Positions 874-44,700 are shown, counted from the whole stretch's first letter. The stretch: DNA of 63,846 nucleotides, filler included, from Licmophora abbreviata (GCA_900291995.1; 17 parts of 17 records of this genome joined end to end with filler, not necessarily neighbours in it), one strand, 5' to 3'. Numbers and translations: made by a program. Notes: generated by a model from the sequence alone, not told the origin.

Positions 874-3800
874 ATGATGGCGTTTGCCGCCGTGTTGCAC
901 TCCATGTTGTCGCGATGTGCATTGGAGACGATTTGCGTCCTTGAGGAGGTCGAGGAAGGACCAAATTGCAGACACATTCATTTCTTAGGAGCCATGGTGA
1001 CGGCCAAGGAACGATCCGAGGCAGTCCGGCCCACGGAAGCGCAGCTCCGATGGGCTCAATTTCACCACAAGAATCGTGCTCTCGCCGTACAGGAACAAGT
1101 GGAGCGCTTGTATCAAACACCGGCTTTGGTCTCGGATGTTCCAGACGCGCACTCGGATGATGGCTTGACGACAGACGAAGGAAGTTCCGTGGGAAGTTCG
1201 CCGTCGCCCCTTTATCAAGCAAAGAATGAGAGAAGAAGAAGTACTGTGAAACGACGTGAAAGCACCAAGCCCAAGATTTCGAGGGGTCGTCGAGCCTTTT
1301 TGCGAGTATCGAAGCGAGCTTATGAGAAACGACGCGCCGAGATTGTTCAGCGTGGATTTCAGTGCCGCGATGAAGAAGTAGGAGAAGAAGACGACATTGT
1401 GAATGTCTTGTTGGAGGAGGAACCTACCATTTCTACCACTGATACGACCGCCGCAACTTCGACTCAACGAAAAAGACATCGCAAGCGACGGCACACTCTT
1501 CGTCGACCACAGCAAGTCATGGATGATGATGATCGTGTACTTAGGTTTGAAGCTGCTTATCATGCAATGATGATGAATTTGGCTCCGCGGCAGCAACCTG
1601 AAATTATCATGGCGCCTTCCAAACGATGGACTCGTTCTGCTGATACGCCCGTGGCCGTTAGCATCGACGGACGACAGTATGATGACTTGAAGTGGGGATT
1701 TACGAAAAAGCTGGCGCCTGTACATTCTGCGGGGTATGCGGATCCGGCAACTCCGGTGGACCGTCGAGCGTCGTGGCTTGTTCATCTTCCGGAACGACAG
1801 TNNNNNNNNNNNNNNNNNNNNNNNNNNNNNNNNNNNNNNNNNNNNTTAATTAATTAANNNNNNNNNNNNNNNNNNNNNNNNNNNNNNNNNNNNNNNNNNN
1901 NCCCTCTCGACGAGCAGATTCGCTTTTGCCCCGACAGCCGTGGATGCCAATGGACAACCGATTGAGCCGGTCCACGCTCTGTCCTCCGAAGCCCGAATGA
2001 TGATATTGTCTCCTGGAGAAATCAAATTTGATGAACTGGTGGCGACCTTACAGCAGCGAGAGATTGAGCATCAGAGACGGCTCGAGGCTGAAGGAAATGT
2101 TCTGCACAAGCGAAAGACGAGCTCGGCAACCAAGTTTCGCCAGCGGTATACGCGAAAGTACGGCTCGTTGGGCGATCGAGAAGAGACTGTGGAGCGACTT
2201 GAATCACATGCTTCGAAGAAGTCTCCAAGGGTGGGTGCTGGCGAAGAGAATCCGCTTCGAACTAGCCTCGAGTCTCCTTCGTCGGATGCAGAGTCGGAAT
2301 TTTGGAAGTCGGCTCGAAATATGCACGACACCACCACTGCCCCAGAAAGAGACGGTGACTCTCCACGAACCATGAAGCTGCGTACGCCTGCAATCAATTC
2401 GAGGAAGCAGCTCAATCCGCCGTCTGTTGGAAATGCTGCCAGCCTGCACTCTCCCACGACCGAGTCGGACGTCGATTCGGAGTTTTGGACATCAGCGAGA
2501 AATATGCGCGACACTACACCGAATGTGACAGGCACGCCAGAGGCCCTTGGAAGTGCTGATTCTTATCGCCGAGCCGATGATTCACAGACGGAGCGCCGTG
2601 TTGTGACATCCAAGGACGGTCCATCTATCGAATCTCCTGTTGCGGAGTCGCCTGTACAATCTGAACTCTTGCATTCGGAAACAAACGGGCACGATAAGAC
2701 TCCCTCGGTCGACATAGACTCTATTCCAGGCTTTAGTAGCTATTCTGACGAGAAGCCGAAGAGTGGGGGGCAGGAGAAACATCAGCGTCTTTCCTTGAAG
2801 TCGACTGGAAATGGAACTGACGAGCAATCTCGCGGAGATGCAACCCACGATGCTGATTCCGACTTCTGGCAAAACACACGCGATATGGGTAACTCGTTAT
2901 CGCCTCCCTCCCAGATGTCTTCTTCTGACCGATGTAGGAATCCCCACCACGACAAGTTCTTCGAGAAGGGACTTAAGGCAGCGCCTGGTGCACCCGGAGA
3001 ATCTCCAATGACTCAGTCTGTCGCGAGCCCCTCGTCTTACGGTTCGGACCAGTCGGTTGATGGCCCTGATTGCAGTCTATCCTCAACACCAAGGGAGGGT
3101 CAAAGTTACGTCGAAACAAGCAGAAACCGTCACCACAGCAAGTTCGCTCTGAAAGGCTACGCCGGGCCAGGTGCCATTGGGGAAGCACCAACATCTCCAT
3201 CGGAGACGAGCACCACAGTCCCACTAGAATCTTCCTATTCTAGTGTTGTCCCTAATGAAACTCGTCTTTCAACGCCCAAGGATGGAGTCTCGTCCCCCGA
3301 ACTGGACAGAAATCGATATCATGACAAGTTTCTCGAGAACGGTCGCTCAGCACCCAATTGGTTTGGGATGTCCACCCTGGACCAATCTGGAAGGAGCGAT
3401 GAGTTCTCCTCTACCCAGGAGCGAGACCAAGTCGCATCGGAAGAGCCGGTGGCTGCTCCTGTTGCTAGCATCGAAACATCTGGCTTACGCAAAGTAGGTG
3501 CCCGGGTGGGAGGACTGTTCAACAGCGTGTTTGCTGGATCGAAAGCGGACGAGGAGGAAGACCTTCGCGCTGTTGCTGCGTTCAAGAAAATGCATAACGA
3601 TCGGAGAGTGCCAAACGATGATGCCACTTCTGCATCATCGTATAAAATCCTTCCCGAAGGAATTCGACGTGTTGTACAGAATTTTTCTGTGTCCAAAGGC
3701 AAGGACCCTCCCGCAATACACGAGGTGCTCGGCGAGAAAGATACCTTTGCAGGAGTTGACACGGGGAAGACGGCCGATCACGCCGCAGTGTCTCCAGTCC

Positions 3801-6490
3801 GTGCCGGTTCCAGCCGTTCTGATGATGGAGAGTACTCGCCTGAGCATGGCAAAGCGTTTCATCAACGCATTCTGGAGCATTCGGCTTTGATTGGCGACGC
3901 GGACGCTGACCAGACCATTATTGACACGGACGGAGCTAGCCTAGCAAGTGATGACCCGAAGATGGACCCACATCTTGCAGCCAGCTTGTTCCTTTCTCCA
4001 ACAATTCTAACGAAACGGCATCAACAGGCGATTCGAGCCATAGAGCGCCAAAAGTGGGAACAGGTTTCATATCTTGTCAGTGCGAATCCATGGCTAGCCG
4101 AGATGACGGATGTCACGACAGCGCAATATTTGCTTCACAAGCTTGCTCTGTATGGTGGCGGTGTTCCCCTCGTCGATCCTCAAACAGGCGAAGTTTCATA
4201 CACGGAACCTGCCCCAGAGAAGCTCAACCTAGATCTCATTCGCATGTTCCCTTCATCCGTACACAAGTTCGACCAAGATGGCAATCTGCCGCTTCACATG
4301 GCTGCTGTCTCCGGAAACAAACGGATGGTGGAGCTTCTAGGAGAGCGGTTTCCTAGCGGTGCATCGGTCCGCAACAACGAGGGCCTGCTCCCCCTTCATC
4401 TAGCGATTCAAGCTTGTCCATCAGTCGCTGCGGATGGCGACGTTTCAAGCGCCTCAGGCGTCATCAAGGCGATTCTTCGACACTTTCCAGGAGCCGTCGC
4501 TGTCGCTGAGAATGGCGGGAATCTGCCCTTTCATTGCGCCGCATCATCCTTGCATGGGGAGGTGGGAGTAGACGTCGTCTACATGCTGCTTGACGAAGCT
4601 GAGCGGCAAGTCCAGAACGGAACTATCTTTCGTACATCCGACAACAAATTGAAGCGGCCGCTTGGACTCGACGACGATGAGTTTCTCTCAGAAGCTACTG
4701 ATGCAACGGCAACCGTCACCGAATCATCGGCTATGGCCGACGAAGGCGTCTACTGCAGCCTTGTTCGCAACAAGGACGGTCACAATCCTCTTGCGTCAGC
4801 AATACGTGCCCGAGCAGGTTGGGAAATGGTCGAGGCGATAGCCGGTGGCCCTGGCGGGAAACATGCTGCTCTTCAGAGTGACCCCAATATGAACAGCGCG
4901 CTGCATTTATTAGTAAGCAAAGAGTTCGCGGATCCAGCAGCCCTACTATCGGTACTGCGGGTCGCGCCCGCTGCCGCAGCAGGCCGGAATGTTGAAGGGG
5001 TATTGCCCATTGAAGTAAGTGTGTGCGATGCTGATACCACGAGTGCGCTCGACGACTTTCGGTCCTTATCCCGCATTGCCCTATGTGATTAGCTTGCATC
5101 GATGCTCAGGATGCCTCGCGAGATCATCCTGTCGCTGGCACTTGTCGATCTACCGATTGACCTGGAGGAGAAGGAGGGCGTCAAGATCCGCGAGAATTTT
5201 GGAGGGAGTTGGTGGTTCCTGACATGTGAATGTGACGACCATCATCTTGACATTGTTCTCGAAGTGATTGCTTTGTGCTCCTACGAACAAACCCGAGAGT
5301 TGTGCTTCATGAAGGGCACTCCCGCACAGGGCAATGGAACCGTCATATCGAGAGCGACGCCTCGCTGCCGTGATGAACTTCGTAAGGCGCTTCGCTTCCT
5401 TGGGCGCTTCGAGTTTGTGGGCGGCGCTGCAACTGAGTATGATGCCGTGCCGGGTCTCAAGGTCTTTGAAGCGCTTGATTTCGGAGACGAGGAAGACGAC
5501 TACGAGGGTGGCCGGAGGGTTATTCTTCGATGCTACGCTCTGGAGAGCTCATTTATGGGCGAGGTACGTCTTCGTAAATCTGCCAACAGTTCGCTTGTTT
5601 CTAAATCTATCTCACATTTCCTGATCCCCAAAACGCTCTTCTCTGCGTAGACTCTCATGTTGCGAAAATTTGATTTGGACACGAACTTCGTAGAGGAAGC
5701 TTTCGATTTCGCAATATCCGAGTTTGACGACCAATCTCAGGAGTCTGCTCCACAACAGTTCTGCGTTGTTGTGGAACAACCCACCCTCACTCTCGATCAA
5801 GTTGTCGCCGGAATGTTAAAGAATGGCGATTATCGCACCAAGCCTGACATGAGAAACCGCTACTTGAGCAAGGTCAGCATGGTTCTTCGACTCATCGCGA
5901 AGGCTCTGCGTTATCTCCACCAGGAGGGCGTGGTTCACGGCAATGTCCGCCTTGAGACTATCGGAAAATACGAGGATACCTGGAAGCTCGCTGATATGCT
6001 CCGCATGCAGCCGATTGGGGGCAACTTTCACGGCTCGCGCATGGGCGAAGCATCCCCGCCCGAAGCACTGAGCATGAGGCGAGATGTTGTGGAAGGGGCT
6101 TCGTCGTCACGCCAAGTTGCTTTTGTCGGCGACTTAACGACAAGTGCTGCATTTGATATCTGGGGCTTTGGTAAACTTGCGTACGAAGTTTTCACCGGTA
6201 TTCCATTGGTTTCGTTCAATTCTGACGATCCTACCCGTCTGGAAAGGAAGGCTCTTCGTATTATTTTCCAGTGGGGCGAAGACAACCTGCGCGACGTGGT
6301 GGAAAACCTGCGGCAAGCAGGAGTTCCGACGCTTGGCGCGGATCTCATTTCACATTGCCTGTTATCTGACCCCCAACAGCGCCCAGTCGACATGGATGAA
6401 GTTCTCGAACATCCCTTTTGGAGAGATATGCGTCGCCGTAGCGCTCCAAGTCAGTCGCGTGCCGAGCGTCGTCATCCAAATGAGATCTAA
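874..6490 (+). CDS. Large protein: disordered N-terminus, ankyrin repeats and C-terminal degenerate protein-kinase-like domain
   Basis: ORF 874-1801 runs into the gap and an open frame resumes at 1904. Introns at 5015-5092 and 5564-5650. Ankyrin motifs GNLPLHMAA, GLLPLHLAI, GNLPFHCAA. Kinase-like motifs HGNVRLETIG, WKLADM, SPPE, DIWGFG, EHPFW. Joining across the 1802-1901 gap is inferred because there is no overlap. Confidence 0.75.
1802..1901. other. Artificial scaffold spacer N44-TTAATTAATTAA-N44 (first of 16)
   Basis: The same 100-nt linker with six-frame stops starts at 1802, 13486, 16155, 20035, 25312, 26415, 29332, 39026, 40402, 45286, 48189, 51565, 54066, 59932, 61178 and 62490. Confidence 0.98.
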
Positions 6491-6789
6491 AATTCGAGAG
6501 AGTGAGAACATGTGAAAACTGGTTGTCTTTAACGTCCAGAAATATTCTTTACGTACCATAAGATTCGTAATACGCCAAGAAGGCGTTAGCATAGCCCGAT
6601 GTCGAGCATCGCCCGCTACCTAGGGTTTTCAGTTTTCAGTTTTGGATCCCTCGTTCGTGGCTTATAACGTTCAAAACGTGACTCATGACGTCCTGCCCCA
6701 GTCACGTGTGACGTACTCGCCGTCGTCGCGACTCACTCCTCTCTTTTCGAAACAATACATTCCAATTTGTCTCCAAGACAGCCGCCACC

Positions 6790-7755
6790 ATGATCATGTT
6801 CTCCATCTCCATGCTGCCCACGGCCTTTCTGCTGGTCCCATCCAGTGCTTTTATCCCACAGCATACTGTCATGTCGCGACCGGGACTCTCAGTGTTCAGG
6901 TGAGTAGAAATAAAATGTCCATGTTGCAGCAAGAGTCGACTCTTTCTCACAATAATGCTTTCCCCCTGCCGCTCGCTTCTATCATACTGCTGTACCATTA
7001 GCTCATCGTCGACCGCCGTGAGAGCCACATTAGAGGCCATTCTGTTTGACTGTGACGGCGTTCTGGCCGATACAGAGCGCGATGGGCATCGACCGGCCTT
7101 CAACCAAGCCTTCCAGGAAAACGATCTTGATGAAGTGTGGGAAGTGGACCGATACGGCGTCTTGCTGGAAACAGGAGGCGGCAAGGAACGCATGACTGCA
7201 CACTGGAATGAAGTCGGCTGGCCTGATGTAATCCCAGAGGAAAAGCGTAGCGAAAAAGTGAAGGAATTGCACTTGCGCAAGACGGATATTTTCATGGATT
7301 TGATTGATTCGGGAGCGATTCCACTTCGACCCGGTGTATTGAGGCTGGTGGACGAAGCAATGGATGCGGGAGTCAAGCTGGCCGTGTGCTCGACGAGTAA
7401 TGAAAAGGCAGTGTCAAATCTTGTGAAAACATTGATGGGTCCAGAACGCGCCGCCAAGTTTCAAGTGTTTGCAGGAGACATGGTCGAAAAGAAGAAACCC
7501 GCACCGGATGTCTATGACATGGCAGTCGACAAAATGGGACTTGACAAGTCACGGTGTGTGATTGTGGAAGACAGCCACATTGGGCTGGGAGCTGCCATGG
7601 CCTCGGGTGTTAGTTGCATTGTCACGAAAAGTTCTTATACGGCAAACGAAGACTTTACGGGGGCCGGCATGATTGTGGATGAGCTCGGAGACGATCCAGC
7701 GACAGGCGTGACGCTGGAGACGCTGAGCTCACTACTCAAGGTAGAAGCATCATAG
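6790..7755 (+). CDS. cbbY: Plastid-targeted CbbY-like HAD sugar phosphatase
   Basis: Exon 1 (6790-6899) reads MIMFSISMLPTAFLLVPSSA-FIP, a signal peptide plus ASAFAP-like motif. Intron 6900-7001. Exon 2 has FDCDGVLADTERDGHRPAFN, TGGGKERM, KKKPAPDVY and VEDSHIG, typical of CbbY. Confidence 0.9.
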
Positions 7756-8588
7756 GAGCATGTTATTGTGTATTTTCAAACGATCCACTCGTTCGAACTG
7801 TGCGAAAGACTGAGAAGAGGCACAAGTAGCTACTACGAATTCGTAGTAACCGACTCCGCTTAGGATGGAACGCCTAACCCTTCCGATTGAATGAGCCGAC
7901 CAGTTGTGGAATAAACTCACTATTCCTACATGAGGACGGGCCGAATATCAGCCCCGCCCAACGGAGAGCGGGCACTCCTCGGTACTTACACACGTTGACA
8001 TCATTGGCCGACAGGCTGTTCTTCCGTTGATGCGGTCGTAACCGGCGATGCATCTCTAGCGTCCACGTTTGACGAGGTCATCTACGAGCTATTTATATTA
8101 CACTCTTTGGTATGAATCAAAGGTCGAGGCAGTGGACACATAACTCCAGCGCTAGGGATTTCATACTTTCAAGATTCAAACCTAAATTCGTTTATTCAGC
8201 GGCCAATACTACGAATGGTCTCAAGTTTCTGTTATGTTTTTCACGTAGAGTTCTACGTGTGACGGTATCCAAAGCGTTCAAGCCGCGCGCCAGGTTCACT
8301 CCGGAGACGACCGCAACGCAAGGCAGGCAGGCACCCCACGGCCTCGAACACAACTAGAAAGCCAACGATCACATCGTGGGGCTCCTGTTGCCACAAAAAT
8401 CAACGAGAAGCCTCCTTCCGCTGGCATTCGTCGCATCGTAGCAACTCTCGAGTCCAAGTGAAGTACTCTTGTGACTCAGCGAAACGGAAATTGCGAAAGA
8501 ATTGACGAAACGGGAGTCAGAATCGCCTCGTCTTCACCGGCTCGAGCGTGATTGCGCATAGACAAACTCCTGTCGAGACGATCTTACC

Positions 8589-11500
8589 ATGGAGCTCGGG
8601 GCGCACGTTTGGTTGCGTCGCGAGACGTCCCACTGGGGATGGGTGCCCGCTCTCATTACTAAGAAGGATACCGTCGAAGTGCAGAGCATCAAAATGATCA
8701 ATTTGACCCTCAACGACGATCCTCACTTGGAAGCCACCATGGAGAACGAGAGTCACCAGATGAACTATTATGCCGACCAAGAACTCTTCGAAGTCGTCAT
8801 AACGGTCGATCCAGAGCAGCTCAAGACCGCTGATCATCCTGATATCAAGCTACGGAATCTGTCTACGTCCTACCAGCTGTCGGGAGAGGATCCGGAAGCC
8901 GGTGTCGTGACGAGTCCGTCGACACGAGTGGACAGCTCTGTGGTGGGAGGCGTGGACGATCTCATTGGACTGACGCATCTTCACGAGCCTGCCATTCTGC
9001 ATGCATTGCGCCTGCGATACGACGCCGATATCATCTACACTGCGACAGGACCCATTCTGATCGCCGTGAACCCCTTCAAGCCGATGGGACTCTACTCGGA
9101 CGACATGATGGAGCGATACCGTCTTCAAGGTGAACAGGGCGTTGGCGCAAGCAAGGGATCGAACTCGACCTTCATGACACCCTTCAAGCGTCGACAACAG
9201 CTTCAGCCACGTGACTCGTCTCGATTGTCGCCGCATGTCTACCAGACGGCCGACGATGCCTACCGTGCAATGCTACGTGGACTCGAGAACAAGGCTCTCA
9301 TGGCCAAGCCGCGCCGCGAGCTCCATCGCGGCGAGAGTCAAATTGAAGCCTTGTCATTTGGCTCTCCCACGAACCAGTCCATTCTCGTGTCAGGAGAGAG
9401 TGGTGCCGGCAAGACCGTCACGACCAAGATCGTCTTGAACTACTTTGCCATGCTCTCCAAGAAGCGCGCGGAGGAAGACAGTCGCAACACGCCCAGTCGA
9501 TTGTCGCCGGGCAAGCAGACGAAGAAATCGTCTCGTCGATCGATGGCGGAAGAGGATATCAGCATTGAGCAGCAGGTCTTGCAGAGCAACCCTATCCTTG
9601 AATCTTTTGGAAATGCTCGTACTATTCGCAATGACAACTCGTCTCGATTCGGTAAATACATTGACATTGCTTTTACGCCCTCTGGCAAGCTATCTGGTGC
9701 ATCGATCGAAACATATCTGTTGGAGAAGGTCCGACTGATTCATCCATCTCTGGGAGAGCGAAATTATCACGTCTTTTATCAGTTCTTGGCAAGTGCGACG
9801 AGCAAGGAACGTCGCGAGTTTTATCTGGACCAAATGAGCTTCGACGACTTCAGACTCTTGTCGAGTGGCACCTACGACCGACGTGATGGCGTGAGCGACG
9901 AAGACAATCATCAGGAAATGTTGGATGCCATGGTACGTTCTGGTGCAGTTCGGTTGTAGCGGCGATCTCACGTTGATTTGGTGCTGACTCATTTCTTCTT
10001 CTCTCTCGCTCAATCTTCAGATTACAATTGGGTTCACTCCGGAGACGATTCAGTCATTGATGCAGCTCGTGGTGGGCGTCTTGTTCGCTGGCAACATGAC
10101 GTTCACGCCATCACCGGATGGAGAAGCATGTACTCTTGATGAGACCGACGCTGCCTACAAGGCTGCCGCCCTACTCGGCGTTTCCTTCGAGGGTTTGGCC
10201 GCATCCCTTACGGAACGCGTCATTCTCGCTGGCAGTGAGATTCTGCACAAGCCCCTTCACATCAACGAGTCCACCAAGGCGTGCGAAGCCCTCGTCAAGG
10301 CTGTCTATGGTGCCGCCTTCGACTTCATCGTCGAGAAGGTGAACGATAGCATCGTGGAGGACACTGCTCAGAACGGCAAGTCGGTTGCGTCCATTGGAGT
10401 TCTTGACATTTTCGGCTTTGAAACGTTCGAGATGAACAATTTTGAACAGATATGTATCAACTATACCAACGAGGCGTTGCAGCAACAGTTCAACAAATAC
10501 GTCTTCAAGCTGGAACAGAAAGAGTACGAGAAGGAAGGCATCCTCTGGAAGTTCATTTCGTTCCCTGACAACCAGAATGTGCTTGATCTAATCGACGAGA
10601 AGCACACTGGTATCATGTCTCTCCTGGATGAGCAGTGTATCCTCCCCAAGAGCAATGATGAGAAGTTCACGCGCTACCTGTACGCGCGGTGCGACAAGCA
10701 CCCCCGATTCCACGCCACGTCCTCCCAGCGCGTTGACTACAAGTTCAGTATCGAGCACTACGCTGGATACGTCGAGTACACCACTGACGGGTGGCTGGAA
10801 AAGAACAAAGATCAACTTCCTGCCGCATCTGCTGAACTGTTGTCGTCGTCCAACTTTGCCCTCATCCCTGAAATCCAGCGCTTCGTGCGAACGGAGGACC
10901 GCGCGGGTCGAGGTACCGTCGCCACCAAGTCAGTCGGTGCCCAGTTCTCGACTCAACTGCGGACCCTTCGTGCCCGGATCGACACGACTGTACCTCACTA
11001 TATTCGTTGCTTGAAGCCGAACGATGATTTGGTGCCGGACTATTTCGAACCGAAGAACATTGTGGAGCAACTACGTTGCGGTGGTGTTTTGGAGGCCGTT
11101 CGTGTGAGCCGTGCCGGATATCCGACGCGTTACCCACACGACGTGTTTATGGCTCGGTACTACATCTTGGGCGATTACAAGGACACCTCGCCGCAGTCGC
11201 CTATTTTCACGCCGGAAAAGTTCACTGAGCGTGATTCTAGCCTGAAGCGCCTAGTGGCCAAGATTGCTTACGACTTGTGGTTAGCTGATCACCAGATTAT
11301 GATGGCGCACATGGAAATGGAGAAGCTGAGACAGCAGAACGCGTACTTGTCGCCAAAGCATCAGAACGTAAGTTGAGCTGATACCATTCTGCCCAATGTT
11401 TGACTCTCTCTCATTTTTCACGGGTTTCTCCTTTCTATTCATCAGGGTAACAACGTTCTGTATGCAGGCAGAACCAACATGAAGCCGCTTTACAACAAGG

Positions 11501-14500
11501 CCACCAAGGGAGGCCCTCAGATGAACGGCCGTTCGTTCAACCTCGTTGTCGAGAGCTCCGTTATGACTCCTGAAGAAAAGCAGCGCCGAAAGAACCGCAA
11601 GTCTGGTGCAGCTCGTGACAGAGATGACGGGCACAACGTGGCTCGACCGGAAAGTGAAGCCGAGTTCCTCTCTCTGGACTTTTCTTCTCGCTGCGCCGTA
11701 GCCGGCTTGCAATTGGGACGCACCAAGGTCTTTCTTCGTCGCGAGGCCTTCGATCGCATCGAAGCACTCCGCTCGGAACGATTCTTCAATGCTGCAGCTG
11801 CTATTCAGAGGATCGTGCGAGGCCGTCAATCTCGCTACTATTATCTCGTTATGCGCGGTGCTGCGATCATGATTCAAAGCGTTTTCCGGATGAAGCTGGC
11901 ATCTCGTGAAATGGATTTCATGAAGCTGGAACACGCTGCGACGACAATCCAAAGCTCATGGCGTATGTATGATGCCAAGCTGTCCGTATGGCAGATAGTC
12001 GTGGCAAGGAAGGCTGCAGCGATCTTGATCCAGCGTGTATACAAAAGACGCATGCGGCTGGCGATGCAGTCGTCCGTGTCGGATGAAGATATTATCAAAG
12101 CCATAACTCAAGTTCAGGCCATGCACCGTGGTAGCGTAGCTCGTGGAGCCGTGATTGAGCTCATGGAGCAGCGATACCGAGAAGAGCAGGAGAGAGTTGA
12201 ACGAGAGAAGGCTAGAGCGGCTGTGACGGCTTTCGCTCAGCAGTCCCCGTCTCCCGTCAAGGAACGGCAGCTATCCCCAATGCCTGTTGTCGTGCAGGAA
12301 ACGAGTGCGCTGGCTGTTGGGACTGATATCCAAACAGAACTGTTCCGTCAGATCCAGGAGGAAAACTGGGCTTCCGTGGAACACATATTGGATAAGAATC
12401 CAGATCTTGCCGAGAGTCCCGACTCCAAGAGCGGAGAATTGCCTTTGCATATGATTGTCCGCCATACCGGCGCATGGACGCTGCTTATCGACATGGTACT
12501 TGTCTTGCATCCCAAAGCTCTCATCCACCGGGACAAGATGGGCGCTCTGCCAATTCATCACGCCTCAGCACACGATAATCTGGCTGCTCTCGAAATCATC
12601 TACAGTGCGTATAAAGAAGGCATCAACGACACGGACAGAAAGGGACGATTGCCGATTCATGTTGCTGCTGAGTTTGACGCTGTTGATGCTGTGAAGTTCT
12701 TGCTGGCGAAGTCGCCCGAGGGAGCGTACACAATGGTATATCGGCCTCCGAACAATTCCGGTGGCGGTCTACCCCTTCATATTGCCACGCGCAATTATGC
12801 TTCCATCGGCGTCATCACGGCGCTTCTAGCAGAGAACTTTGCCTCTGCGAAGCGTGCAGACGAAAACGGAGACCTCCCCTTGCACCTTCTGTTGCGCTGT
12901 GGCGAAGTCGTTGACCAGGTTGTTGTAAAGACTCTCTTGACCTGTTTCTCTTCTGCCGTGTCTCGTACTGACATGAACGGCGATCTTCCACTGGCTATCG
13001 CGATTAAACACCAGTGCCGATCTGCAGTAATTAACTCTATCCTTATGCAATTTCCGGAGGGTGCCGGAGTTCTGAATGGAGACGGACACAGTCCTCTATA
13101 TTTGGCTTTCAAGCACAGTGCTGATGACCGGACGATAATGGGTCTGCTGAACCACGCACCTGAGGTAAGTCCAGTTGGATGAATTTAATCGAAGTCCACT
13201 CTCATCGAAAACTCACTTGCCTGAGTTTTTTTTCTGTAGCTTGCAACCGCTATTGATAGAAAGACCGGCATGCTTCCTATTCAGGTGGCGACAGAGAACG
13301 AACACTCGCACTTCATCGTCCACAATCTTCTGAAGCGCGACATGCCGATCGATTTGAAGGAGAAGGTGCGGGCGCAGCTCATTCCCCACCACTACTCTTG
13401 GAATCATATCGTGTCGAACACGGAAGACATGTACCATCAAGTGGTCACCAAGATCCTTCAGTCCTGCACACAGCCACAGGTGCTCNNNNNNNNNNNNNNN
13501 NNNNNNNNNNNNNNNNNNNNNNNNNNNNNTTAATTAATTAANNNNNNNNNNNNNNNNNNNNNNNNNNNNNNNNNNNNNNNNNNNNCCTTCAGTCCTGCAC
13601 ACAGCCACAGGTGCTCGCTCTCGCCCACGTGGAAGGTCCCGACAGCAAGATCGCACTCGCTGCTGCGACACCGGTTTGCAAGCACGAGCTCCGTGTCATG
13701 CTCAGGCTTTTCAACACCTTGGAAGTCGTGAACCAGAAACCTGCGTACACAAACCCCGTTAGTGATACACAGATCTTCTACGCTCTTCGATACGATCCAC
13801 CCAAAGAACAGAGTAACCAATTCACCATCCTGCACGAGGACAAGAACGACGGCGGCGAGAACGACTATCTCGAGGACTGGGACGATTCTTCTCAGACGTC
13901 TGCAGCTTCGAGAAGTAGCGTTCGTTCGACGCTCAGTAGCCGGTCGCAACAGACTATCGAAGACAAGCTTCGTTACATTCGCAAGGAGAAGGGTCAGCAG
14001 GTGATTGCTAAACTTACGTCCAGGTCTGACGTCGTTGAGCGCGAGCTCAAAGTGCGCAAGGAGCATCATCTGTCTCGTCACTACGTTCCTGCAATCATCA
14101 GCGTTCATCACACGGTCCAGCACGCGGCATACTCCGAAGCGATGGCGGAGCCGGGATACTGCATAACCATGGAGGGAGCAGACACCACAGCAGAGAACCT
14201 CATGTTGGATATGCGCAAGTCCGGAAAACCTTTCCCCGTGAAGGCGCTGAAGCGCATCGGCATATCGCTTCTGCACATGCACGAGCATGGATTGATTCAT
14301 TGTGACTTTGGGACTCACAACATAGGCAAGTTTGGTAGTCGATGGAAGTTGCTAGGCGTCGGCGGAAGCGTTCCGATCGGCGAACCGACGGATCCGAACC
14401 GTGGCTTTTATCATCCACCTGAATCGATCGTCGTTGAGAACAAGCGCGTCCCGCTTGGTAAGAAGAACGTGTCTGCTTGCGTCGTATCAGTTCCCGCCCA

Positions 14501-15191
14501 GACGAACTACGACATCTGGGCTTTCGGTTGTGTGGTGTATGAAGCGATCGCGGGGGTGCCGCTTTCGGCGTACGCTTGTCGAGGCAAGCGAGCGATGTCA
14601 TCGGTTGAAGTTGGAAAGATCGGACTGTGGGACGAACAGAACGTCAAAAAGTCGATGAAGCACGTACCAGACGACGAAGTCGCGCGCGATCTTCTTCGTC
14701 GTATTCTTGATCACGAGCCGGAGCAGAGGTTTCGCTCGATGCGTGCCGTGCTTGAGCATCCTTTCTTCAGTGGCGGCAAGGTTGACGATCGCAACGCCGC
14801 GCGACCAAGCGCCTCGGTTCCGCTCAAGGGCGGACAGCGCTCAAAAGCGAACCCTCCATCTCGTCAAGGTTCGCGACCGAGACAGTCTGGAAGCTCACTT
14901 GGAAATGCCTCAGGCCGCGTACACTCTCGAGAGACTCAGGGGAGAACTCGTAAGATTGCTGAATACGAAACGGATCCCGTGGGAAATGTATCCGGCAATG
15001 TCGGCGGGTCCAGCAGCCCCGGCCAGGAGAATCGCTTGAATAGAGCCCCATCGAATTCTCGCTCCAAGCAACTGGAACCCACCGGGGCGAGCTACCCTGT
15101 CTCGCCCGACAGCTCTGACAGTCCAAAATCCTCTCGTAGCTTTGGAGGTCTACGGAACAAGTTTCGTTCACGCCGAAAGGAGAAAGCGTAA
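8589..15191 (+). CDS. Unconventional myosin with IQ motifs, ankyrin repeats and C-terminal kinase-like domain (about 2076 aa)
   Basis: P-loop GESGAGKT, switch I NDNSSRFGK, switch II DIFGFE, HYIRCLKPN, QLRCGGVLE. About 5 IQ-like motifs and multiple G-LPLH ankyrin repeats. Introns 9933-10020, 11368-11445, 13165-13239. The 13486 gap has a 31-nt duplicated flank that closes in frame (LQSCTQPQVL|ALAHVEG). Confidence 0.92.
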
Positions 15192-33100: not shown

Positions 33101-36100
33101 CGACGTGAAAAATAGTCCAACAAAATGTACAATCAATGACACGGCATATTTGATCGTAACGAACCTCTTTCCCGTTGTGGCAGTAGTGTATCGTTCCACT
33201 GTACGAGCCTTCAGTCACCTGCTCGGTCGTCCATCCTCGACTCTTGAGCGAAGGCCAAAGCGTCTCGCCGAAAAGGCTCAGCATTCCGCGTTTCGAAGTG
33301 AGAGCCTGCTTCCCCGCATATTCATGGAGAGCACGCTCCAGCTTCCCTCTGGGTCTAGGAGCAAGATTCTGAGCATCAAACGAGGCGTCAACGAGGACTT
33401 GGTTTGCCCAGGAGGAGTTTGACGACAACAACTTCGCGAACGCCAACTGCACATCATCTTTCAGGTTGGGCCGATTCGGCTCGAGAGCTTGAGGATTTCC
33501 CAGCACTCCACCTTCCGTCGCTTTGCTCTCAGACGACGATCCTTCTGACTCACGCTTCTTGTCCGCGGCGCGTTCAGCTCTTTTCTTCGCATTCTGGGCT
33601 TCTTCCTGTGCAGTCTCACGGAAGATGACAAGAAGCGTCGCCCAACACATGCGCCTCACCTGGTTCGTTAAGAGGACGACATAGTGCGTAAGCAATTTGG
33701 ACAAACCATGCGAAAAGTTCACAAGAAGTGTACGTACCGCATTGATGCTGTATTTTGAGGCATCAAGACCCGTTTTCTCACGGAAACTTTTCCATGGGAG
33801 GTTTCCGTATCCGAAACACTGAAGAGACTTCACCAACGCATTCATATCTGCTTTCCCCCATTCGTCGTTTCTATTTCCACCCCAGCGAGCCTTTTCTTTT
33901 CGCTTCTTTCTCCTCTTCGCAGATGGCATATCAGGATTGGTCTGTCCTGGCACGGGTGTAGACTTTGGAGACAGCGAGGCGTCATCCGTGTCACTCTCGT
34001 ACTCAGCCGAAGAGGATTCGTCATTGTCACTGTCACTCATCACAATGACACCCTCAATCTTGCGGTCAAAGTCGAGCTCAGAGTAGTTTGTTTTGTTCCT
34101 TTTTCGCTTCCTGCCGGTCAAGTCGTCCCCAGCGGTCGACTTCATATGCTCTTCGCCGACCATTTTCGACCAGAATTCGGGGTCATCAATGTCGATTTCT
34201 TCAGTTTCACCACTTGCAAGCGCAGCACTGGGAGATTTCTGTGCTTTGAAGCTCGCCTTAGAAAAGGTGCCACCTGCAGCGCCGCTGCCGCTTCCAGTGT
34301 TGTCATGTACAACGGTTTTGCTTCGACGAGCCAGAATGGAGTCGATATCCTGTTGCACGAACTCGTTTGATTCTAATTCAGCCGTACCAGCCTTCTCTTC
34401 GTTGAAAATATCGTACGCACCATGTCGAAGCAACCGCTCTACTTCCTCTTTCGTCATGGTACCCTATGACGAACCAGCGCGAAGGCTGCGTATAAGGGGC
34501 TTGAAGCACTCAGAATGACACAATGACAGCGACACAAAAGAGCTTACCTCGCCCGAACTAGAGCCGCTTTCGAATCCCTGGAGTACAGCTTGGTCGAGTC
34601 CCATCTTCATCGAGGCTAGGTGAAACATTTGCATCTCATAGGTCTTGCGAGTCAAGAGGCGATAGACTTTTACACTCTTTGTCTGCCCAATACGATGACA
34701 ACGCGCTTGGGCCTGGAGGTCGTTTTGTGGGTTCCAATCTGAGTCAAAAATAATGCATGTGTCTGCCGCTGTCAAATTGATGCCAACACCCCCTGCACGA
34801 GTAGAAAGCAGCATGATGAACGGCGCTTCCGACCCATCAGAAGGAGCATTCTGGAACCTATCAATGGCCATCTGCCGTTTGTGACCAGTAATGGAGCCAT
34901 CGATACGCTCTGATTTCACCTCTCGAGCGATGAGATAATCCTCCAGGAGATCGAGCATGATCCGAAACTGGGAAAACAAAAGAACCTTGTGTCCATTCTC
35001 CTTGAGTCGCGGAAGTAGCTTGTCTAGAAGAACCAGCTTTCCCGAGGCTTTTGCAAGAAAATCACCGTCAGGTAAATCGTCGGCTTCCCGTGAGCGCACC
35101 TCCTCTTCGACGCCATTCAGTAAGAATGGGTGGTTGCAACACTTGCGGAGCTGCATGGCAAGATTGCTCAGACTAGGACCATCGAGCGCCTTTCGTTTGT
35201 TCTTGTGAAGGAACTGGACGTTCTTTTCGTAGAGCGCCCGGTAGTACTGCTTCTGCAGAATGGTCAGCTCGACTTCAATTAGAGTTTCCTCCTTGGGAGG
35301 AACGGACTTCTCTACATCTTCTTTCAGGCGCCGTAGAATGTACGGGCGAATCGATTCATGGAGCTCGTCGATTCTTTCTTTGCTTTTGATATCACCGAAG
35401 CGCTCCAGGAACGTCTCAAGGTCTTCATATTTATCCCGATTGATGAAGTTCAAGAGTGTCCACAGCTCTCGCATGTCATTTTGGATTGGTGTTCCTGTAA
35501 GGAGAAGGGTATGACCGAAGGAAAACTTCTTATTTCGAAGATTGGAGGCAAGCTTGGAGTTATGGTTCTTCAGGCGGTGTGCCTACGACAACATAAATAG
35601 CGAGAATACGATACAGCGTGTGATTGAGCGACGTCGACAATATAGGAAGCAACCGACCGTGATTCCTCAACCGGGCTACACACACCTCATCCACGACAAT
35701 CGTTTCCCAATCGACAGCAGCGAGCTCTATATAGTCGTCCGTGACAAGCATCTCCGGTGTCGTAATAATGACTTCAGCCATCCAGATCCGCTCCGCCTTG
35801 GATCGCGCTTTTGCCATGCACTTCTCGAGATATTTCTGATTGAACGCGACGCCGTTCTTCGGACGATCGCATTGAAAGGGGAACTCGAACTCACGGATGC
35901 ACTCTCGGTCGACAGCAGATCCGCGATAGATAATTGTGTTGAGCTCAGTCCACCCGGTAAATTCTCTGTACCAATGAGGAATGGTAGACAACGGTGCGAC
36001 AATGAGGAATGGTCCACGGCGTTTCATTCGAGACGCTATCAGATGGATAAACGCCGCGGTTTGAATCGTCTTGCCAAGACCCATTTCATCAGCTAGAATG

Positions 36101-37535
36101 GACGAACGACCGTTGACGTAGTTGGCAGTCAGCCATGCCACTCCCTCGGCTTGGTAGTCACGAAGCTGCCCCCCATTCTTGAAAACATTTTCCTCAAGCT
36201 CCTTTCGATAGGCTTTTACTGTTGCTTCTCGGTCCTCCTCACGAATGTTACTCTTGTCCCCAAATATCTTGTAGCTGCGCCGCTTCTCCGCTTCGGCAGA
36301 ATTGAGAACGCTTCTAAGATCGCTCTTCGACGGCTGATGCACAAGACAAAAGGGAATTAAATGATTTGGTGTGAGAGTAGACCGCAAAGATAGTTCATTC
36401 ATGTGATATGAGGATTTGATCGTACCTTTTTGTTCCGCGTCTCGAAAGCCTTGAGCTTCTCCACATAATCAATGTCACGCAGGATCAGATCACGTTCAAA
36501 CTCAAAAGTCGCATCAGAATACGCTGTATTCCCCCACTTCACCAAGAGCTGGCGACCCGTCCCTAGCTCGAAGTTTTCGTCTTTTTTGTCCATTACAAGT
36601 CCATACTTGGCAATAACCGGGTCGTCACTCTTGACCTCTGGAACGTCATCTGGGTGACACACGTCGAGGATTCGGTCAATCTGTACATAGGCAGGATCAA
36701 AATAGTCCCCGTCACACCGTTCGTCAGCATCAAACAAGTATCCATTCTCGCTCTTTCGGAAGAAAGTCGTCAGGTATGTTTTTCCTCCTTCCGCCTGGTC
36801 GACAAGATCCTCTTGTGTCTCCCAGGAGCAGTGCAAATAGCTCAAGTCTGACCATTTCACGAGAAACCGCTCTTCGAACGCATCGAGATCTTCCTCGTCA
36901 TCCTCAGACTCCTCTCCTTCCTGAAACCATCGACTTCCATAGTCGATTTCGGACGTGTTGATGCCCTTGCAGATGTCACGCCAATTCCGACGCGACTCTG
37001 ACCGCGAAGCTACAATCCGTTGAATCTTGAGCAACTCTTCCTCCTCCTCTTCGTCTTCCGATTCCCCACTCCCTTCTTCCTCTTCCTCGGAAGAAAAGTC
37101 TTCCTCGTCCACTGGCACTTCAATGCGCATAGTACGACGACGCGAAGAATGTCGCACGGCCGGCGACTTTGGGTGGCGGGAACTAACGGCCTTGCGGGGC
37201 GTATGGCGCGGAGTTTCGGGTCCGTCCTCACTGTCGCGACCAGAAACAGCATTCGTTCCCCCCAACAGGTCGGAAATTTGATCCGTGGGTTCCTTCATAC
37301 TCTTTCGGAACATGTTCGTACGAGATGAGGCGCGTTTTAGAGGGTCCTTGCTGTTCTTGGATCCAGGTGGCGACCGCGGCGGTGTGCCTGAGATGTCGTC
37401 CTCTTCTTCCTCATCGTCTGGGGAGGACGACGGGGTAGTTTGGGAGGGATCGTCCTCGCTGTCCTCGGCACCACTGTCATTGATCTTGGGGCCTTGTGCA
37501 GCGTTGCGACGTGGGTTCCGGCGCGATCCAATCAT
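30192..37535 (-). CDS. CHD-family chromatin remodeller (tandem chromodomains plus SNF2 helicase)
   Basis: Chromodomains [16 protein letters not shown] and [67 protein letters not shown]. Seven exons approx. 37535-36426, 36333-35686, 35582-34548, 34463-33738, 33659-33165, 33078-30697, 30621-30192. Confidence 0.92.
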
Positions 37536-38504
37536 GTCGACGAGGATCTTTGATTCGCTGTACGGTCTCGTGGAGGTAGTAGAACGGGAAACCGCGACAC
37601 GGTATCAATGTCGAGTCGATCGAGAAGAATTCTTCAAATGAAAGATAATTCGTCTCTGAATTTTCCTGAAGGCCAAGAGAGGCAATGAGCGAGGGCGTGT
37701 GAGGTCAATGCTCTTTCACAACAAAGCTGGCGTGTTCGGCTTGTCTCTCCATTGCACCCACAGCGTTGCCGCACCACAATGCTGGCACAATGTTTCCCGC
37801 CCAAATTTGATTTGGCGCGCTTTTTTAAATCCCAATGCTGTTGGCGGTCCTTCTCCATGTTTCAACACGATTACATACCGTTTCAAGACTAGAGGAGGCC
37901 AGGAATGTGGGTTGTGACCAAAAAACTCCCTGCTGCAATGTCGGTGATTCCAAACAGGCAACTTTGGACGAAGCCTTTGTGTCCGAAAGGGTGCGCCAAA
38001 GTTGGTTTTGATTTTTGGTGCTAAAGCTACGTCGATATCTACGTACTTTGTCTGTTGATGAACTCAGGCTGTCAGATTCGAAACGTACTTCCCGTGTGAA
38101 GCGAACTATGATATGACTCTGCTCGAGTGTCTGAGTTCTTGAGTGCATTTCTTCTCAGTACATATTGAATGTACATACGTGTTTCAGTGTACTCATTCCA
38201 CGAAGATTCTGCGAGCGCGCCGATCCTCCCCCCACCTCCGTAGAAGCTACGTAACTTTTCTACTGCAGCAATATCATACGGTTCGGCAAATCGCCCTTTT
38301 TTCAACGCCGGTCCCACACGCACAACAACGCACAACCACACACAAGAAAGAGCGAGAACTCGCCGAACTTCAAACTCCACAATCACAATCTCACACATTC
38401 ATTGCATCGAGAGAGACCTCGCGAAGAGATCAAAGACTCGAGCTCCCTTTCATCGATCTCTCCTCGTTGGAAGCTCATCCTCATCCCTCCGCATTGCCAA
38501 AATC

Positions 38505-41744: not shown

Positions 41745-44700
41745 TCATGGCATGCTCACATTCAGCATGGGGGCAATCTTCTTCGACAGAATTCTTTGAA
41801 CCAAAGAACGAATCTCTTCGCTTTGAACACGGACCAAAGAACACAACACGGGGAAAAACGCTTGCGTGTGTCTTGCAAACTGTTCCGGCTCGATCGCAAG
41901 CATCACGTTCAGAATGCCAACGACGACGCCTGCAAAGGACGTGCAGTATATGGCCATCTTGCCGCCGCTTTCACTCGCATTTCTCCAAACGTTCGGATCA
42001 ATGAGGTGAGCTTCCCGTTGCTCCGATGCCTGAAACTTCTCCAGGACATCCATCATGCGTTCCAGCAGTAGTGGCTCGGCAAAACTCTCACGATCCCAGT
42101 CATCCAGCCCCTTGCTTTGAAACAAAATCGACAGCATGATGACAATATTATTCGATGCGCTCGCTTCCTGAGTCAAGAAGAACATGGCGCTTCCGCGGCG
42201 CTGGGACAGGCGACCCGAATTTAGGGCTTCCTCGACTTCTTCCACGCCGTCCCCCCAGTTGCTAAACATTTCTTCCTGGAAAATGTGGGACAAGTCTTCG
42301 TTGCGGCTGGCCTTATGTGCCATGGCGCGAGATTGATTCAGCGCATTCAGTAGCGACGTGGTGACAGACTCAGGCGCTAGAGGCACAAATGTGTCAAGCA
42401 CTTCAAAGAGAGACTGTTGTAGACAGTATGCCGTAATACAACGCGTCTTGAGAGCCGGCACCAACTTTTCCCAGTACGTTTCTTTGGAAGGGGCGATACG
42501 ATTCTTTGAAAGAGAGGCAATACGAGACAATGGTTAGCGTCGAGGGTATTGGTTGGCGCGTAGCGCACCCCTTAGCCTTACCTCTTCGCATGGGCCGGCG
42601 TGGCGACGATCGAGACTCCGGCTCCTGACACGACAATGTTCCAGGTGCCGGTCGGTAGAGAGTCGCGCCGAAGTCGAGAGCGATGCCATTCATCGTCAGT
42701 CCAACAGTTCTACCATTTGAGTCGGCATTCGAGTATGTATCCTTCCTGCGTCGCACCAGGCGTCCCTTTCCGTAAGGTGTGTACATGATTACCTCAACGT
42801 CGACTTCATCTTCTTCGTGAGTCACAGTGGTTCGGAGAGGCGCACGCGAGGAAGTGCCATTGGTAGTAGCCGCTTCAACGTCATGATCGTCTTGGTGATG
42901 AGCCTCCTCTACTGCAACCTTCGAATCTTCCGTGATACCGTAAGCCTTCAGTTTAAGACGAACCAGCTCATCCGCCACGCCATCCTCCACAGTGACAACG
43001 GTCGCCAGCGTGTCAGCAATACTATCGAACACGGAAGCAGCCCAAGCCGCGCCCTCATTCTCATCCAAATCAGAAATGATTTCCACGAGTCGCCTTGGAA
43101 ATCGATTGAACTCCCGACAAGATGCCCGAATTAAGGCTTCGCAGGGTTGCCACGACACACCCTTGTTATCGTGAATAAAGTCATCTCTAGTGATCGGGCG
43201 GGATCCACCCTCGAACGACTCCGGACGACCAATCGCCCACACTTGCAGCTGCTCCAAAACGATTGGCCACAGGACTTCCCGGCCTTCCACCCCTCGACGA
43301 ACGAATATTTCGCTCGAGATGTCAGTTAGCAGTCCAAGTGCGATCGGAGCAGTCGTTGCGACCCAACTGTCAGGGAATGGTTGTTCGCTGAATCCTTCGT
43401 CCTTTCCCTGCGCACATTCAAGCGACTGGTGAGCTTCATGTCATCGGAAACACTATCTGAATGGGCAAGAAAAATGCTTACCTTCTTCAAAAGCTCGTAC
43501 GCGCGGCTCAGATTCCCATCCCCTCCATGTCTCATATCGGCAAAGCTTGCCTCGACCAACAGCTCTGCCGTTCCCAGCGGGCGCTTAGGAGCACTGGAGC
43601 CAAAAATCGCGGAGGGGTGAGAAACCCCGACGACAAATAAATGAAGGTGACAATATATACTGTCTTACCTTTCCTCGGTGTGCGTGCGCTCGGCAAACTT
43701 CCGAAGCCCCTCATCGTCGTGCGGAGGTGGAAGTCTCTGAGACTCAGCCAAGAAATCCAGGCTTGAAACAGAAGGAGTTTCTGACGTGATGCGGATCACA
43801 GGCGACACATCGGCCTCCGCGGCCACCTGAATTGACGGGAGCAGCGATTGCTTGAGAATGGCCGACCACTGGTCTGCGGAGAACATGTGGCCGTGTCTCA
43901 GCAAGATTGCACGTAGCGCCAAAACGCTACCTCGCTGTACCAAGCAACCCACACCACCAGAGATACTGGGAAACGTAGATCTCAAGCCTTGAGTAAGTCC
44001 ATCAAGCAAGGGTCGCCACAGTACCATTTCTAAGGCTTCCTCGTCCGAAAGTTCTGAGTAAGTAAATCCAGCTGCATGCGGGTCACTCGACTATACATCA
44101 AAATGAAAACGTCAATGGCTTAGCGGCACGTAATTGCGAGGATAGGAAATGACGACAGATCGATAGCTTACCTGGGCACCTGAGACAGGCGGAAGAACGC
44201 GATGATCGGCGAGAAGATCCGCGTAGCAGGCAGTGTGACAAAGAGCTCGCATCGATAATCCAATCGGAATAGGTGACGTAGTCTGGTTCGTCTGTACGAA
44301 CGAAAGAGATGCACGACACAGCCCAATGAAATCTTCGACGTTTGCATTTCGATTGCGCTCTTCCAACGCACTCATAGCCTCGTCGCGGCCCACGCCGTCC
44401 ACATCCTCATCGTCTCCGTCCGTGAGGCGACAAAGCTGGTGCAGATGTTCATCAAGGAGTCGTTGCAGAATGGCGAGTCCGAGCGTATTGATTCGCTCAC
44501 TCTGGTCTCCAGCGGAGAGGGTCAGGATAGAAAAGAAAATCTTCCAGCCACTTCGCAAGTTGTGTGACATCGTACGTATCATATTGTCGATACAGCGCAG
44601 AATGAGTTCCCGGATGTCCTCTCTTGTTCCTTTGTTCCCCATAATCTGCAAGAAGGGTCGGAGAAAAATCCTTTGAAAATTGAATTCAGAAAGTTCCGGC

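Follow-up and report, generated by a model that had tools for sequence, protein, structure and literature searches.

A motor-less protein and a myosin of the diatom Licmophora abbreviata carry homologous ankyrin-linker-kinase modules, probably as members of an old diatom family

A stretch of 63,846 nucleotides from the diatom Licmophora abbreviata (GCA_900291995.1), hereafter the window, carries on its plus strand two genes whose products share ankyrin repeats, a linker and a protein kinase-like domain. Gene A (874–6490) encodes a motor-less protein of approximately 1783 amino acids (aa), and gene B (8589–15191) a myosin of approximately 2076 aa. The question which this locus raises is whether the two form a dedicated pair, a motor and its non-motor adaptor acting through pseudokinase domains as the initial annotation proposed, or whether each is one member of something larger. 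We favor the second answer, to which we assign a probability of roughly 60%: A and B would belong to an old diatom family of such modules, the kinase-like domain of B would be a pseudokinase switch or scaffold, and the adjacency of the two genes would be a relic of duplication. This answer is built upon homology, clade structure, residue conservation, fold and a linkage that is recurrent and non-universal; the binding roles, nucleotide binding and shared regulation which appear in it are what we infer from them.

The two modules are true homologues, as had been claimed. In a BLASTP comparison the spliced A protein and the B tail gave one colinear high-scoring pair [156 bits, E = 2e-42, 190/814 identities (23%)] spanning approximately 750 residues, which starts in the pre-ankyrin helix and stops where the kinase-like domain ends in HPFW/HPFF. 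Taken alone, the initial half of the linker still aligns [4e-6], as do the kinase-like exons [3e-22], and a search of the Protein Data Bank (PDB) with the kinase-like part of B returned no chain at E ≤ 1e-3. Because the parts outside of the repeats align by themselves, and because the B domain has no PDB kinase match, the relationship is specific and goes beyond the generic likeness of ankyrin repeats and kinases. Both proteins fit a module profile from end to end (hidden Markov model positions 2–730), and Pfam recognized Ank and Pkinase in each, with Myosin_head and IQ in addition in B.

The paired motifs on which the initial annotation based its claim, LPIE/LPIQ, DLPIDLEEK/DMPIDLKEK, SWWFL/SWNHI and ATPRCRDELRKALRF/ATPVCKHELRVMLRL, are all present and in register in the BLASTP alignment, as is the kinase-loop pair HGNVRLETIGKYEDTWKLADM/HCDFGTHNIGKFGSRWKLLGVG. 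LPIE/LPIQ was rejected as a special linker motif, being the last degenerate ankyrin repeat according to an AlphaFold2 (AF2) model and motif comparison. Nor is the post-ankyrin linker private to A and B, as the word “distinctive” had implied: its motifs recur in a third clade, designated C, and in many catalytically intact relatives. They comprise an acidic residue followed by LP[IV][DE], an aromatic residue followed by Trp, D.Y, the sequence D..GR.A, which resembles a degenerate ankyrin repeat, and F..RYE at the entry to the first kinase strand. The module family was defined by a pre-ankyrin helix, ankyrin repeats, a helical linker with the signature [DE][LM]P[IV][DE], SW and ATPxC, and a kinase-like domain which has no Gly loop and ends in HPF[FW]. 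A and B both conform to this definition.

Only 720 of 1.84 billion representative proteins matched the linker-kinase exon of B at E ≤ 1e-3 (164 at ≤ 1e-10 and 47 at ≤ 1e-30); this is therefore a small, divergent kinase lineage. Pfam architectures were determined for 55 of the 78 matches of at least 400 aa. Three combine Myosin_head, Ank and Pkinase; fifteen have Ank and Pkinase with neither a motor nor TIR; nine have TIR (TIR_2) beside a better-scoring kinase domain, two of these nine having Ank as well; and a few carry LRR, GGDEF or 7TM domains.

Trees were calculated upon the linker and kinase columns, a quick one with 67 rows and a careful one with 38, and both gave the same topology: the catalytically intact relatives on one side and (B,(A,C)) on the other. 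Clades A, B and C are each supported at 100%, the separation of all three from the intact relatives at 99/98, and the A + C grouping at 99/95. Clade C is a further motor-less ankyrin-kinase group, with proteins of approximately 900–1300 aa, whose assignment to diatoms comes solely from one metagenomic locus (L015, described below). A topology constrained to unite A and B is worse by 6.1 log-likelihood units [approximately unbiased (AU) test, p = 0.078], and is disfavored, not rejected. A and B are thus not a dedicated or exclusive pair, since the trees place C closer to A than they place B; their homology stands, and what falls is the idea that the pairing is exclusive or recent, there being at least three old diatom clades.

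The nearest catalytically intact relatives are kinase-TIR fusions (P0099, P0113, P0117, P0139, P0144, P0147, P0157, P0161 and P0164). These possess the helical linker, HGDxKPxN and D[LF]D, and no Gly-rich loop; ankyrin repeats accompany TIR in some of them, a 7TM/ANF receptor part is found in a single one, and LRR or GGDEF occur in related rows. A separate set of ankyrin/kinase-like fragments (P0102, P0104, P0082, P0088 and P0091) is 31–35% identical to the B module and nearer to B than to A. These could be B-type genes of distant lineages or a fourth clade, the fragments being too short to show a motor.

How far the kinase-like domains have departed from a kinase was read from a residue table whose rows were grouped by identity to the A or B protein of the window and by the tree. 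Among 37 intact relatives the beta3 Lys and the alphaC Glu are each found in 36, the HxD Asp and the catalytic Asn each in 34, and the DFG Asp in 35, usually within D[LF]D. The 128 B rows all retain the beta3 Lys, the alphaC Glu and the HxD Asp, and 126 of them the Asn; none has the DFG Asp, the position of which is taken by Gly in 128/128 (GVG), and Gly also stands at the catalytic-loop Lys in 128/128. Hence the initial reading of B, with Lys, HxD and Asn kept and the DFG Asp lost, is correct and holds across its orthologues. Matters are different in the 46 A rows, where the beta3 Lys occurs in 16, the alphaC Glu in 23, the HxD Asp in 10, the Asn in 12 and the DFG Asp in 6. The seven C rows all have the alphaC Glu, three have the Asn and three the DFG Asp, and neither the beta3 Lys nor the HxD Asp is found in any.

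The A protein of the window has Arg at the beta3 Lys position, Asn at the HxD Asp and Asp at DFG, just as had been reported, and Thr at the catalytic Asn. The individual residues behind the proposed “different catalytic losses” were therefore read rightly, but the losses are not complementary: A-type rows conserve no catalytic residue, and for this reason the DFG-position Asp of A (6/46) is incidental. No GxGxxG loop could be seen in the aligned N-lobes of A, B, C or the intact relatives. Pseudokinases are defined bioinformatically, in PMC4718504, by the loss of at least one of the VAIK Lys, HRD Asp and DFG Asp. B, with no DFG Asp, and the A of the window, with neither the Lys nor the HRD Asp, both fall under this definition. 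Of the features of a competent kinase, a complete HRDxKxxN loop is absent from A and B alike; the beta3 Lys/alphaC Glu pair is invariant in B and not conserved in A; and the DFG Asp is absent from B and present in the A of the window, though in just 6/46 A-type rows. B represents one fixed, strongly conserved partial loss, and A and C have drifted at the catalytic positions.

Is the linkage of A and B peculiar to this window? An A-type alignment identified 15 loci among JGI metagenome contigs, four of which (L007, L011, L012 and L015) are informative upstream, having at least 1 kb before the A start. In two of them a B-type myosin lies on the opposite strand, head-to-head with A, its start being 537 bp (L015) or 641 bp (L007) from the A start codon. 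These myosins possess the B-type N-terminal signature and, aligned from residue 1 onwards, share 51–58% identity with B and its orthologues; a tree calculated upon the heads groups them together, outside of the raphid pennates and outside of the Thalassiosirales. On L015 the myosin starts at 1423 (minus strand), the A-type gene runs from 1961 (plus strand), and a C-type ankyrin-kinase gene occupies approximately 10092–7610 (minus strand), 0.3–2.8 kb beyond A. With C beside A, all three clades are therefore found there within approximately 10 kb.

Other loci are arranged differently. No myosin precedes A in the 6.3 kb available on L011 or the 4.7 kb on L012, both of which belong to a deep A subclade, and none follows A at the three loci that extend 6.4 kb or more beyond it on the downstream side (L003, L011 and L015). 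The A and B orthologues of Epithemia clementina are unlinked, residing on contigs of 1,344,529 bp and 2,675,487 bp, respectively. Two ENA proteins, P0037 (A-type) and P0243 (B-type), both derive from a contig of 50,358 bp, which is a weak proxy for linkage; no other contig size was shared among the matches listed (48 A-type proteins and 120 B-head fragments). Synteny in other diatoms thus has a mixed outcome, recurring on two metagenomic contigs and failing in Epithemia, L011 and L012. We conclude that the A–B linkage is old and recurrent, not universal, and that its arrangement varies among lineages.

Within the window the two genes are on the same strand with a single gene between them, as the initial annotation had it. 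This gene (6955–7755, plus strand; Pfam Hydrolase/HAD_2), which had been named cbbY, specifies an HAD-IA family hydrolase. Among NCBIfam models only HAD-SF-IA-v3 exceeded its cut-off (51.7 versus 29.4); every listed equivalog model fell far under its own, and the name CbbY occurs in 0 of the 20 listed families. A HAD protein 72–79% identical to it adjoins A-type genes on L004–L006, two of which (L004 and L005) are near-identical, lying just downstream on the opposite strand, after which those contigs end. The HAD gene next to A-type genes is a second small conserved microsynteny.

The window, whose short introns follow the GT..AG rule, derives from a eukaryotic nuclear genome and consists of 17 contig pieces chained through 16 artificial spacers of the form N44-TTAATTAATTAA-N44. 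One spacer (1802–1901) lies inside gene A and another (13486–13585) inside the linker of gene B; 14 further spacer sites are located elsewhere. The B spacer is followed by a 31-nt duplicate (13586–13616) of 13455–13485, an identical 31-mer overlap of two pieces. Readings of open reading frames (ORFs) or frames across any spacer need correction for it and, at the latter site, for the 31 duplicated bases as well. Since orthologues cross both joins colinearly, the models of genes A and B hold. The uninterrupted piece 1902–13485 includes the A module, the HAD gene and the B motor, neck, ankyrin repeats and first part of the linker, and because all of this is on one contig piece the adjacency of A and B is real. 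No other copy of the module is present in the window.

Based upon ORFs, splice sites and an open spliced coding sequence, gene A has exons at 874–1801, 1902–5014, 5093–5563 and 5651–6490, with in-frame GT..AG introns at 5015–5092 and 5564–5650. Its start codon is the ATG at 874 or one at about 994; the N-terminus and the reading across the spacer at 1802–1901 are colinear with A orthologues. A pre-ankyrin helix and ankyrin repeats (4025–5014) were recognized by Pfam (Ank_2/Ank_5) and by alignment to the ankyrin region of B. The next exon (5093–5563), delimited by alignment to B and to orthologues, specifies the last degenerate ankyrin repeat, the helical linker and the first N-lobe strands, and contains DLPIDLEEK, SWWFL and ATPRCRDELRKALRF followed by a beta3 strand, VILRCY, with Arg for Lys. 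The remainder of the kinase-like domain (5651–6427; Pfam and the orthologue motif table) displays an HGN catalytic loop, KLADML at the DFG position, PPE, DIWGFGK and HPFW. Its Pkinase score of 38.3 bits, against a cut-off of 31.7, comes mainly from the C-lobe, which has only weak matches to PDB kinases [best E = 3.7e-5].

Pfam detected no motor in A, no family at all in 874–4003, and no motor in any of the 48 listed A-type proteins. The latter are 42–66% identical to A in the linker exon, and their named sources are Nitzschia, Pseudo-nitzschia, Cylindrotheca, Mayamaea and Epithemia. In the low-complexity, Ser/Pro-rich N-terminal half (2270–3400, plus strand), searches with regular expressions located two short motifs three times each, [DE]S[DE]FW..[AT]R[ND]M and R..[HY]H[DS]KF (core [HY]H[DS]KF); they look like linear binding motifs. 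A search of the Atlas with the conserved N-terminal region of A provided no usable lead (best score 0.79).

Gene B was modelled from its splice sites, an open spliced coding sequence and colinearity with full-length orthologues such as P0214. Its exons are 8589–9932, 10021–11367, 11446–13164, 13240–13485 and 13617–15191, and its introns 9933–10020, 11368–11445 and 13165–13239, all on the plus strand. An SH3-like N-terminal extension and the motor domain (8589–11367; Pfam Myosin_head, 276.6 and 379.4 bits), with the P-loop GESGAGKT at residue 269, are followed by a neck of IQ motifs and a charged helical stretch (11446–12336; Pfam IQ and the translation). By this succession of motor, P-loop and IQ neck B is a myosin heavy chain. 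Next come the pre-ankyrin helix and ankyrin repeats (12337–13164; Ank_2, 62.3 bits, supported by the alignment to A and the AF2 model of the orthologue P0206), and then, split by the spacer, the last ankyrin repeat (LPIQVA) and helical linker (13240–13720), identified from the same alignment and model and carrying DMPIDLKEK, SWNHI and ATPVCKHELRVMLRL.

The kinase-like domain of B (13721–14774; Pkinase, 44.1 bits against a cut-off of 31.7, and the motif table) contains VIAK, the alphaC Glu, HCD..N, and GVG in place of DFG. It is interrupted by an N-lobe insert (13721–14100) of approximately 45–75 residues, acidic, Ser-rich and predicted to be disordered, which sits between the first strands and the helix preceding the VIAK strand and which the orthologues also possess. 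The protein terminates in a Ser/Arg-rich tail (14775–15191), likewise predicted to be disordered from its translation and from a predicted local distance difference test (pLDDT) value below 50 at the P0206 equivalent. B-type proteins come from raphid pennates (Epithemia, Cylindrotheca and Amphora) and from centrics (Thalassiosira and Stephanocyclus). In the linker-kinase part none of the 120 listed matches falls below 68% identity, and by a count from the table 63 of the 120 have Myosin_head. Compared with P0214, P0310 and P0052, B is 66–75% identical in the kinase-like part and 50–65% in the motor, neck and ankyrin parts. Conservation among B rows peaks in the linker (mean pairwise identity 86%).

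Folded alone, the B exon of the window gave a poor N-lobe (mean pLDDT 64.5), and the linker was read instead from the AF2 model of the complete B-type module of P0206 (mean pLDDT 78.7, with the structured parts at about 90). There the linker is predicted to be a folded helical domain (pLDDT approximately 90) which runs from the ankyrin stack, LPIQVA forming its last repeat, into the kinase N-lobe. The kinase part of B adopts a kinase fold in the model, matching ordinary Ser/Thr kinases at Z 17–19 with no family standing out. A complex prediction of the linker-kinase exon of B with the two A exons, made with partial modules and no supplied alignments, scored 0.00, a value which speaks neither for nor against binding.

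Based upon these results we would suggest the following history. The ancestor would have been a catalytically intact kinase (VALK, HGDxKPxN, D[LF]D) which already bore the linker and was often fused to TIR, and local duplications of an ankyrin-linker-kinase gene would have produced B, A and C in diatoms. The module would comprise a pre-ankyrin helix, some 8–9 ankyrin repeats, the helical linker and a protein-kinase-like domain devoid of a glycine-rich loop. In clade B one copy presumably became fused behind a motor, such that the module forms the globular tail of an IQ-necked myosin; in clade A it would stand after a long, mostly disordered N-terminal half; and clade C would be a shorter motor-less form. 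The gene cluster may then have decayed to differing degrees among lineages. The ankyrin stack of B may be a platform for binding cargo or partners, and its kinase-like domain, with its Lys-Glu-Asp-Asn pocket, is most likely a nucleotide-binding pseudokinase switch or scaffold and not a conventional kinase, because the Mg-binding Asp, the catalytic-loop Lys and the Gly-rich loop are all absent. As the kinase-like domain of A conserves no catalytic residue, A might be a pure scaffold or adaptor; the complete degeneration of this domain, together with the length and low complexity of the N-terminal half, gives A the look of an adaptor. The adjacency of A and B would be a relic of the duplications that made the family, persisting in some lineages, possibly with help from a short intergenic region which would regulate the divergent genes jointly. 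Adjacency alone does not show joint function.

Several points weigh against this reading. The functional role of every family member is inferred, and the invariant Lys, Glu, Asp and Asn of B fit residual catalysis as well as they fit nucleotide binding. The groups in the residue table derive from identity thresholds and the tree, not from curated orthology, and the B set is skewed towards the best-scoring matches. A and C both evolve rapidly and could attract one another in the tree, in which the A + B sister grouping stays above rejection at AU p = 0.078. Since the two genes are in tandem in the window and divergent on L007 and L015, their proximity has outlasted at least one rearrangement, for which selected co-regulation could be the cause; the relic reading gives this too little weight. 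A first alternative, which widens the proposal of the initial annotation, is that A and B are a functional motor-partner pair, with A binding the B tail through the homologous modules or competing with it for a cargo receptor, and both being co-expressed from shared regulatory DNA. A adjoins a B-type myosin in three separate lineages and two arrangements (tandem with the HAD gene, and head-to-head), the L015/L007 lineage being deep relative to that of the window; the 537 bp and 641 bp between start codons would fit a bidirectional promoter; P0037 and P0243 both come from a 50,358-bp contig; and both families are under purifying selection. A partnership gains some support from the divergent-promoter arrangement. 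Against it, the genes of Epithemia clementina are on separate contigs (1.34 Mb and 2.68 Mb), two of the four informative A loci (L011 and L012) have no upstream myosin, none of three (L003, L011 and L015) has one downstream, and no further same-sized contig pairs occurred among the matches listed (48 A, 120 B-head). Furthermore, the trees put A nearer to C than to B, and modules that are only 23% identical need not share ligands. We regard such a partnership as distinctly improbable. About as improbable is an extension of it in which an ancient cluster of a myosin and one or two motor-less paralogues, co-regulated from a divergent promoter, would form a motor/decoy system made of pseudokinases, the motor-less proteins being adaptors or competitive regulators of the cargo site and the B pocket sensing nucleotide.

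A different possibility, which we consider unlikely, is that B is an active atypical kinase riding upon its motor, phosphorylating cargo, light chains or itself with no Mg-binding Asp in the manner of CASK; it would be a functional parallel to the class III myosins with the kinase at the opposite end of the protein. That B retains its Lys, Glu and HxD Asp in 128/128 rows and its Asn in 126/128, whereas A and C drift, speaks for such an activity, as does a kinase-like part more conserved than the motor, and CASK is described in PMC4718504 as active and cation-independent with no DFG Asp. The whole family, on the other hand, has no glycine-rich loop, all 128 B rows have Gly for the catalytic-loop Lys, and the Pfam Pkinase match is barely over its threshold (44.1 versus 31.7). 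Scarcely credible is the notion that faulty assembly, scaffolding or plain chance put A and B side by side, and that their likeness is the generic one of ankyrin repeats and kinases. It is true that the window was stitched from 17 pieces with artificial spacers, and that ankyrin repeats and kinase domains are common. Yet the sequence is uninterrupted from the A module to the first part of the B linker (1902–13485), orthologues bridge both spacers colinearly, the linker and kinase-like parts align alone [4e-6 and 3e-22], no PDB kinase matches the B domain at E ≤ 1e-3, and the adjacency recurs on independent contigs.

The architecture of B is the same as that of diatom kinase-tailed myosins: motor, IQ neck, ankyrin repeats and C-terminal Pkinase. 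Ankyrin repeats and a kinase domain were reportedly noted among the tails of Phaeodactylum myosins by Heintzelman and Enriquez in 2010. According to Odronitz & Kollmar 2007 (PMC2375034), ankyrin repeats and the Pkinase domain can stand at either end of a myosin, and diatom orphan myosins are drawn in a figure; with such myosins already recorded, the architecture of B is not new. Class III myosins unite a motor with a protein kinase and class XVI myosins a motor with ankyrin repeats, and class III is restricted to metazoans, according to PMC3942036. Both classes carry the additional domain at the N-terminus, that of class III being a PF00069 kinase, whereas B has its ankyrin repeats and its degenerate kinase domain at the C-terminus. 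B is thus not a class III myosin, its kinase-like domain lying beyond the IQ neck and ankyrin repeats.

Among pseudokinases, the best whole-model PDB match of P0206 is RNase L [3.5e-15, approximately 770 columns]. RNase L is described in PMC4718504 as having N-terminal ankyrin repeats, a structured ankyrin-kinase linker at the nucleotide pocket, and an inactive, nucleotide-binding kinase domain which serves as a dimerisation scaffold. The domains match those of the B model and their arrangement differs (TM-score 0.30, rmsd 27.7 Å, identity 14–15%). RNase L keeps the canonical nucleotide-binding mode and has a KEN/Ribonuc_2-5A domain, for which Pfam found no match in A, B or the 55 scanned relatives. 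The likeness lies in the ankyrin and kinase part and does not imply that the two architectures as wholes share an ancestor.

RNase L, ILK and STRAD act as nucleotide- or partner-binding switches or scaffolds, and ILK has ties to the actin cytoskeleton and binds ATP with no catalysis, according to PMC4718504. Like the diatom module, ILK and TEX14 have ankyrin repeats N-terminal to an inactive kinase domain which serves as a protein-binding scaffold. TEX14-like and other ankyrin-kinase clusters are the nearest language-model neighbors of the clade C protein P0150 in the Atlas, which gives no alignment statistics; no relationship of the module to ILK or TEX14 was detected at the level of sequence. 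ILK has retained its DFG Asp; a Gly-rich loop is missing from the diatom module, which possesses a linker domain of its own. CASK resembles B in keeping the Lys, the HxD Asp and the Asn and in having Gly at the DFG Asp position, and differs in that B also has no catalytic-loop Lys. With myosins that bear kinases and scaffolds that join ankyrin repeats to a pseudokinase both familiar, nothing here is surprising in kind.

Searches of the literature turned up neither the paralogue pair nor diatom pseudokinases, and no class for the B myosin, which the additional files of PMC5583752 may classify. The words “kinase” and “ankyrin” are absent from the supplementary files of PMC11420354, and “ankyrin” from the main text of Kollmar & Muhlhausen 2017. 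The literature searched does not describe the fixed GVG pseudokinase signature, the linker in common with intact TIR-fused kinases, the two motor-less paralogue clades or the partial clustering of all three clades.

The remaining part of the window (17820–59360) contains ordinary nuclear genes and several ORFs with no Pfam match, and specifies a BSD-domain protein, a Chromo-SNF2-helicase remodeller (34467–37604, minus strand), a BIG/Sec7-type ArfGEF (44115–47264, minus strand), a GMC oxidoreductase and a pyruvate kinase (52191–53873, minus strand).

In a 2024 paper, no diatom myosin outside of the raphid gliding class is said to be functionally characterised. The B-type is among the most widely conserved diatom myosins in this analysis, occurring in pennates and centrics, with its tail better conserved than its motor. 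Experiments in transformable diatoms have three handles here: the pseudokinase module of that tail is specific and under strong constraint, two motor-less families also possess it, and the genes occur in clusters in some cases. This raises the questions of what cargo may attach to the ankyrin platform, whether a nucleotide occupies the pocket, and whether the motor-less paralogues may modulate the motor. The family as a whole constitutes a natural series from active kinase through partly to fully degenerate domain, and as such would be useful for the study of pseudokinase evolution.

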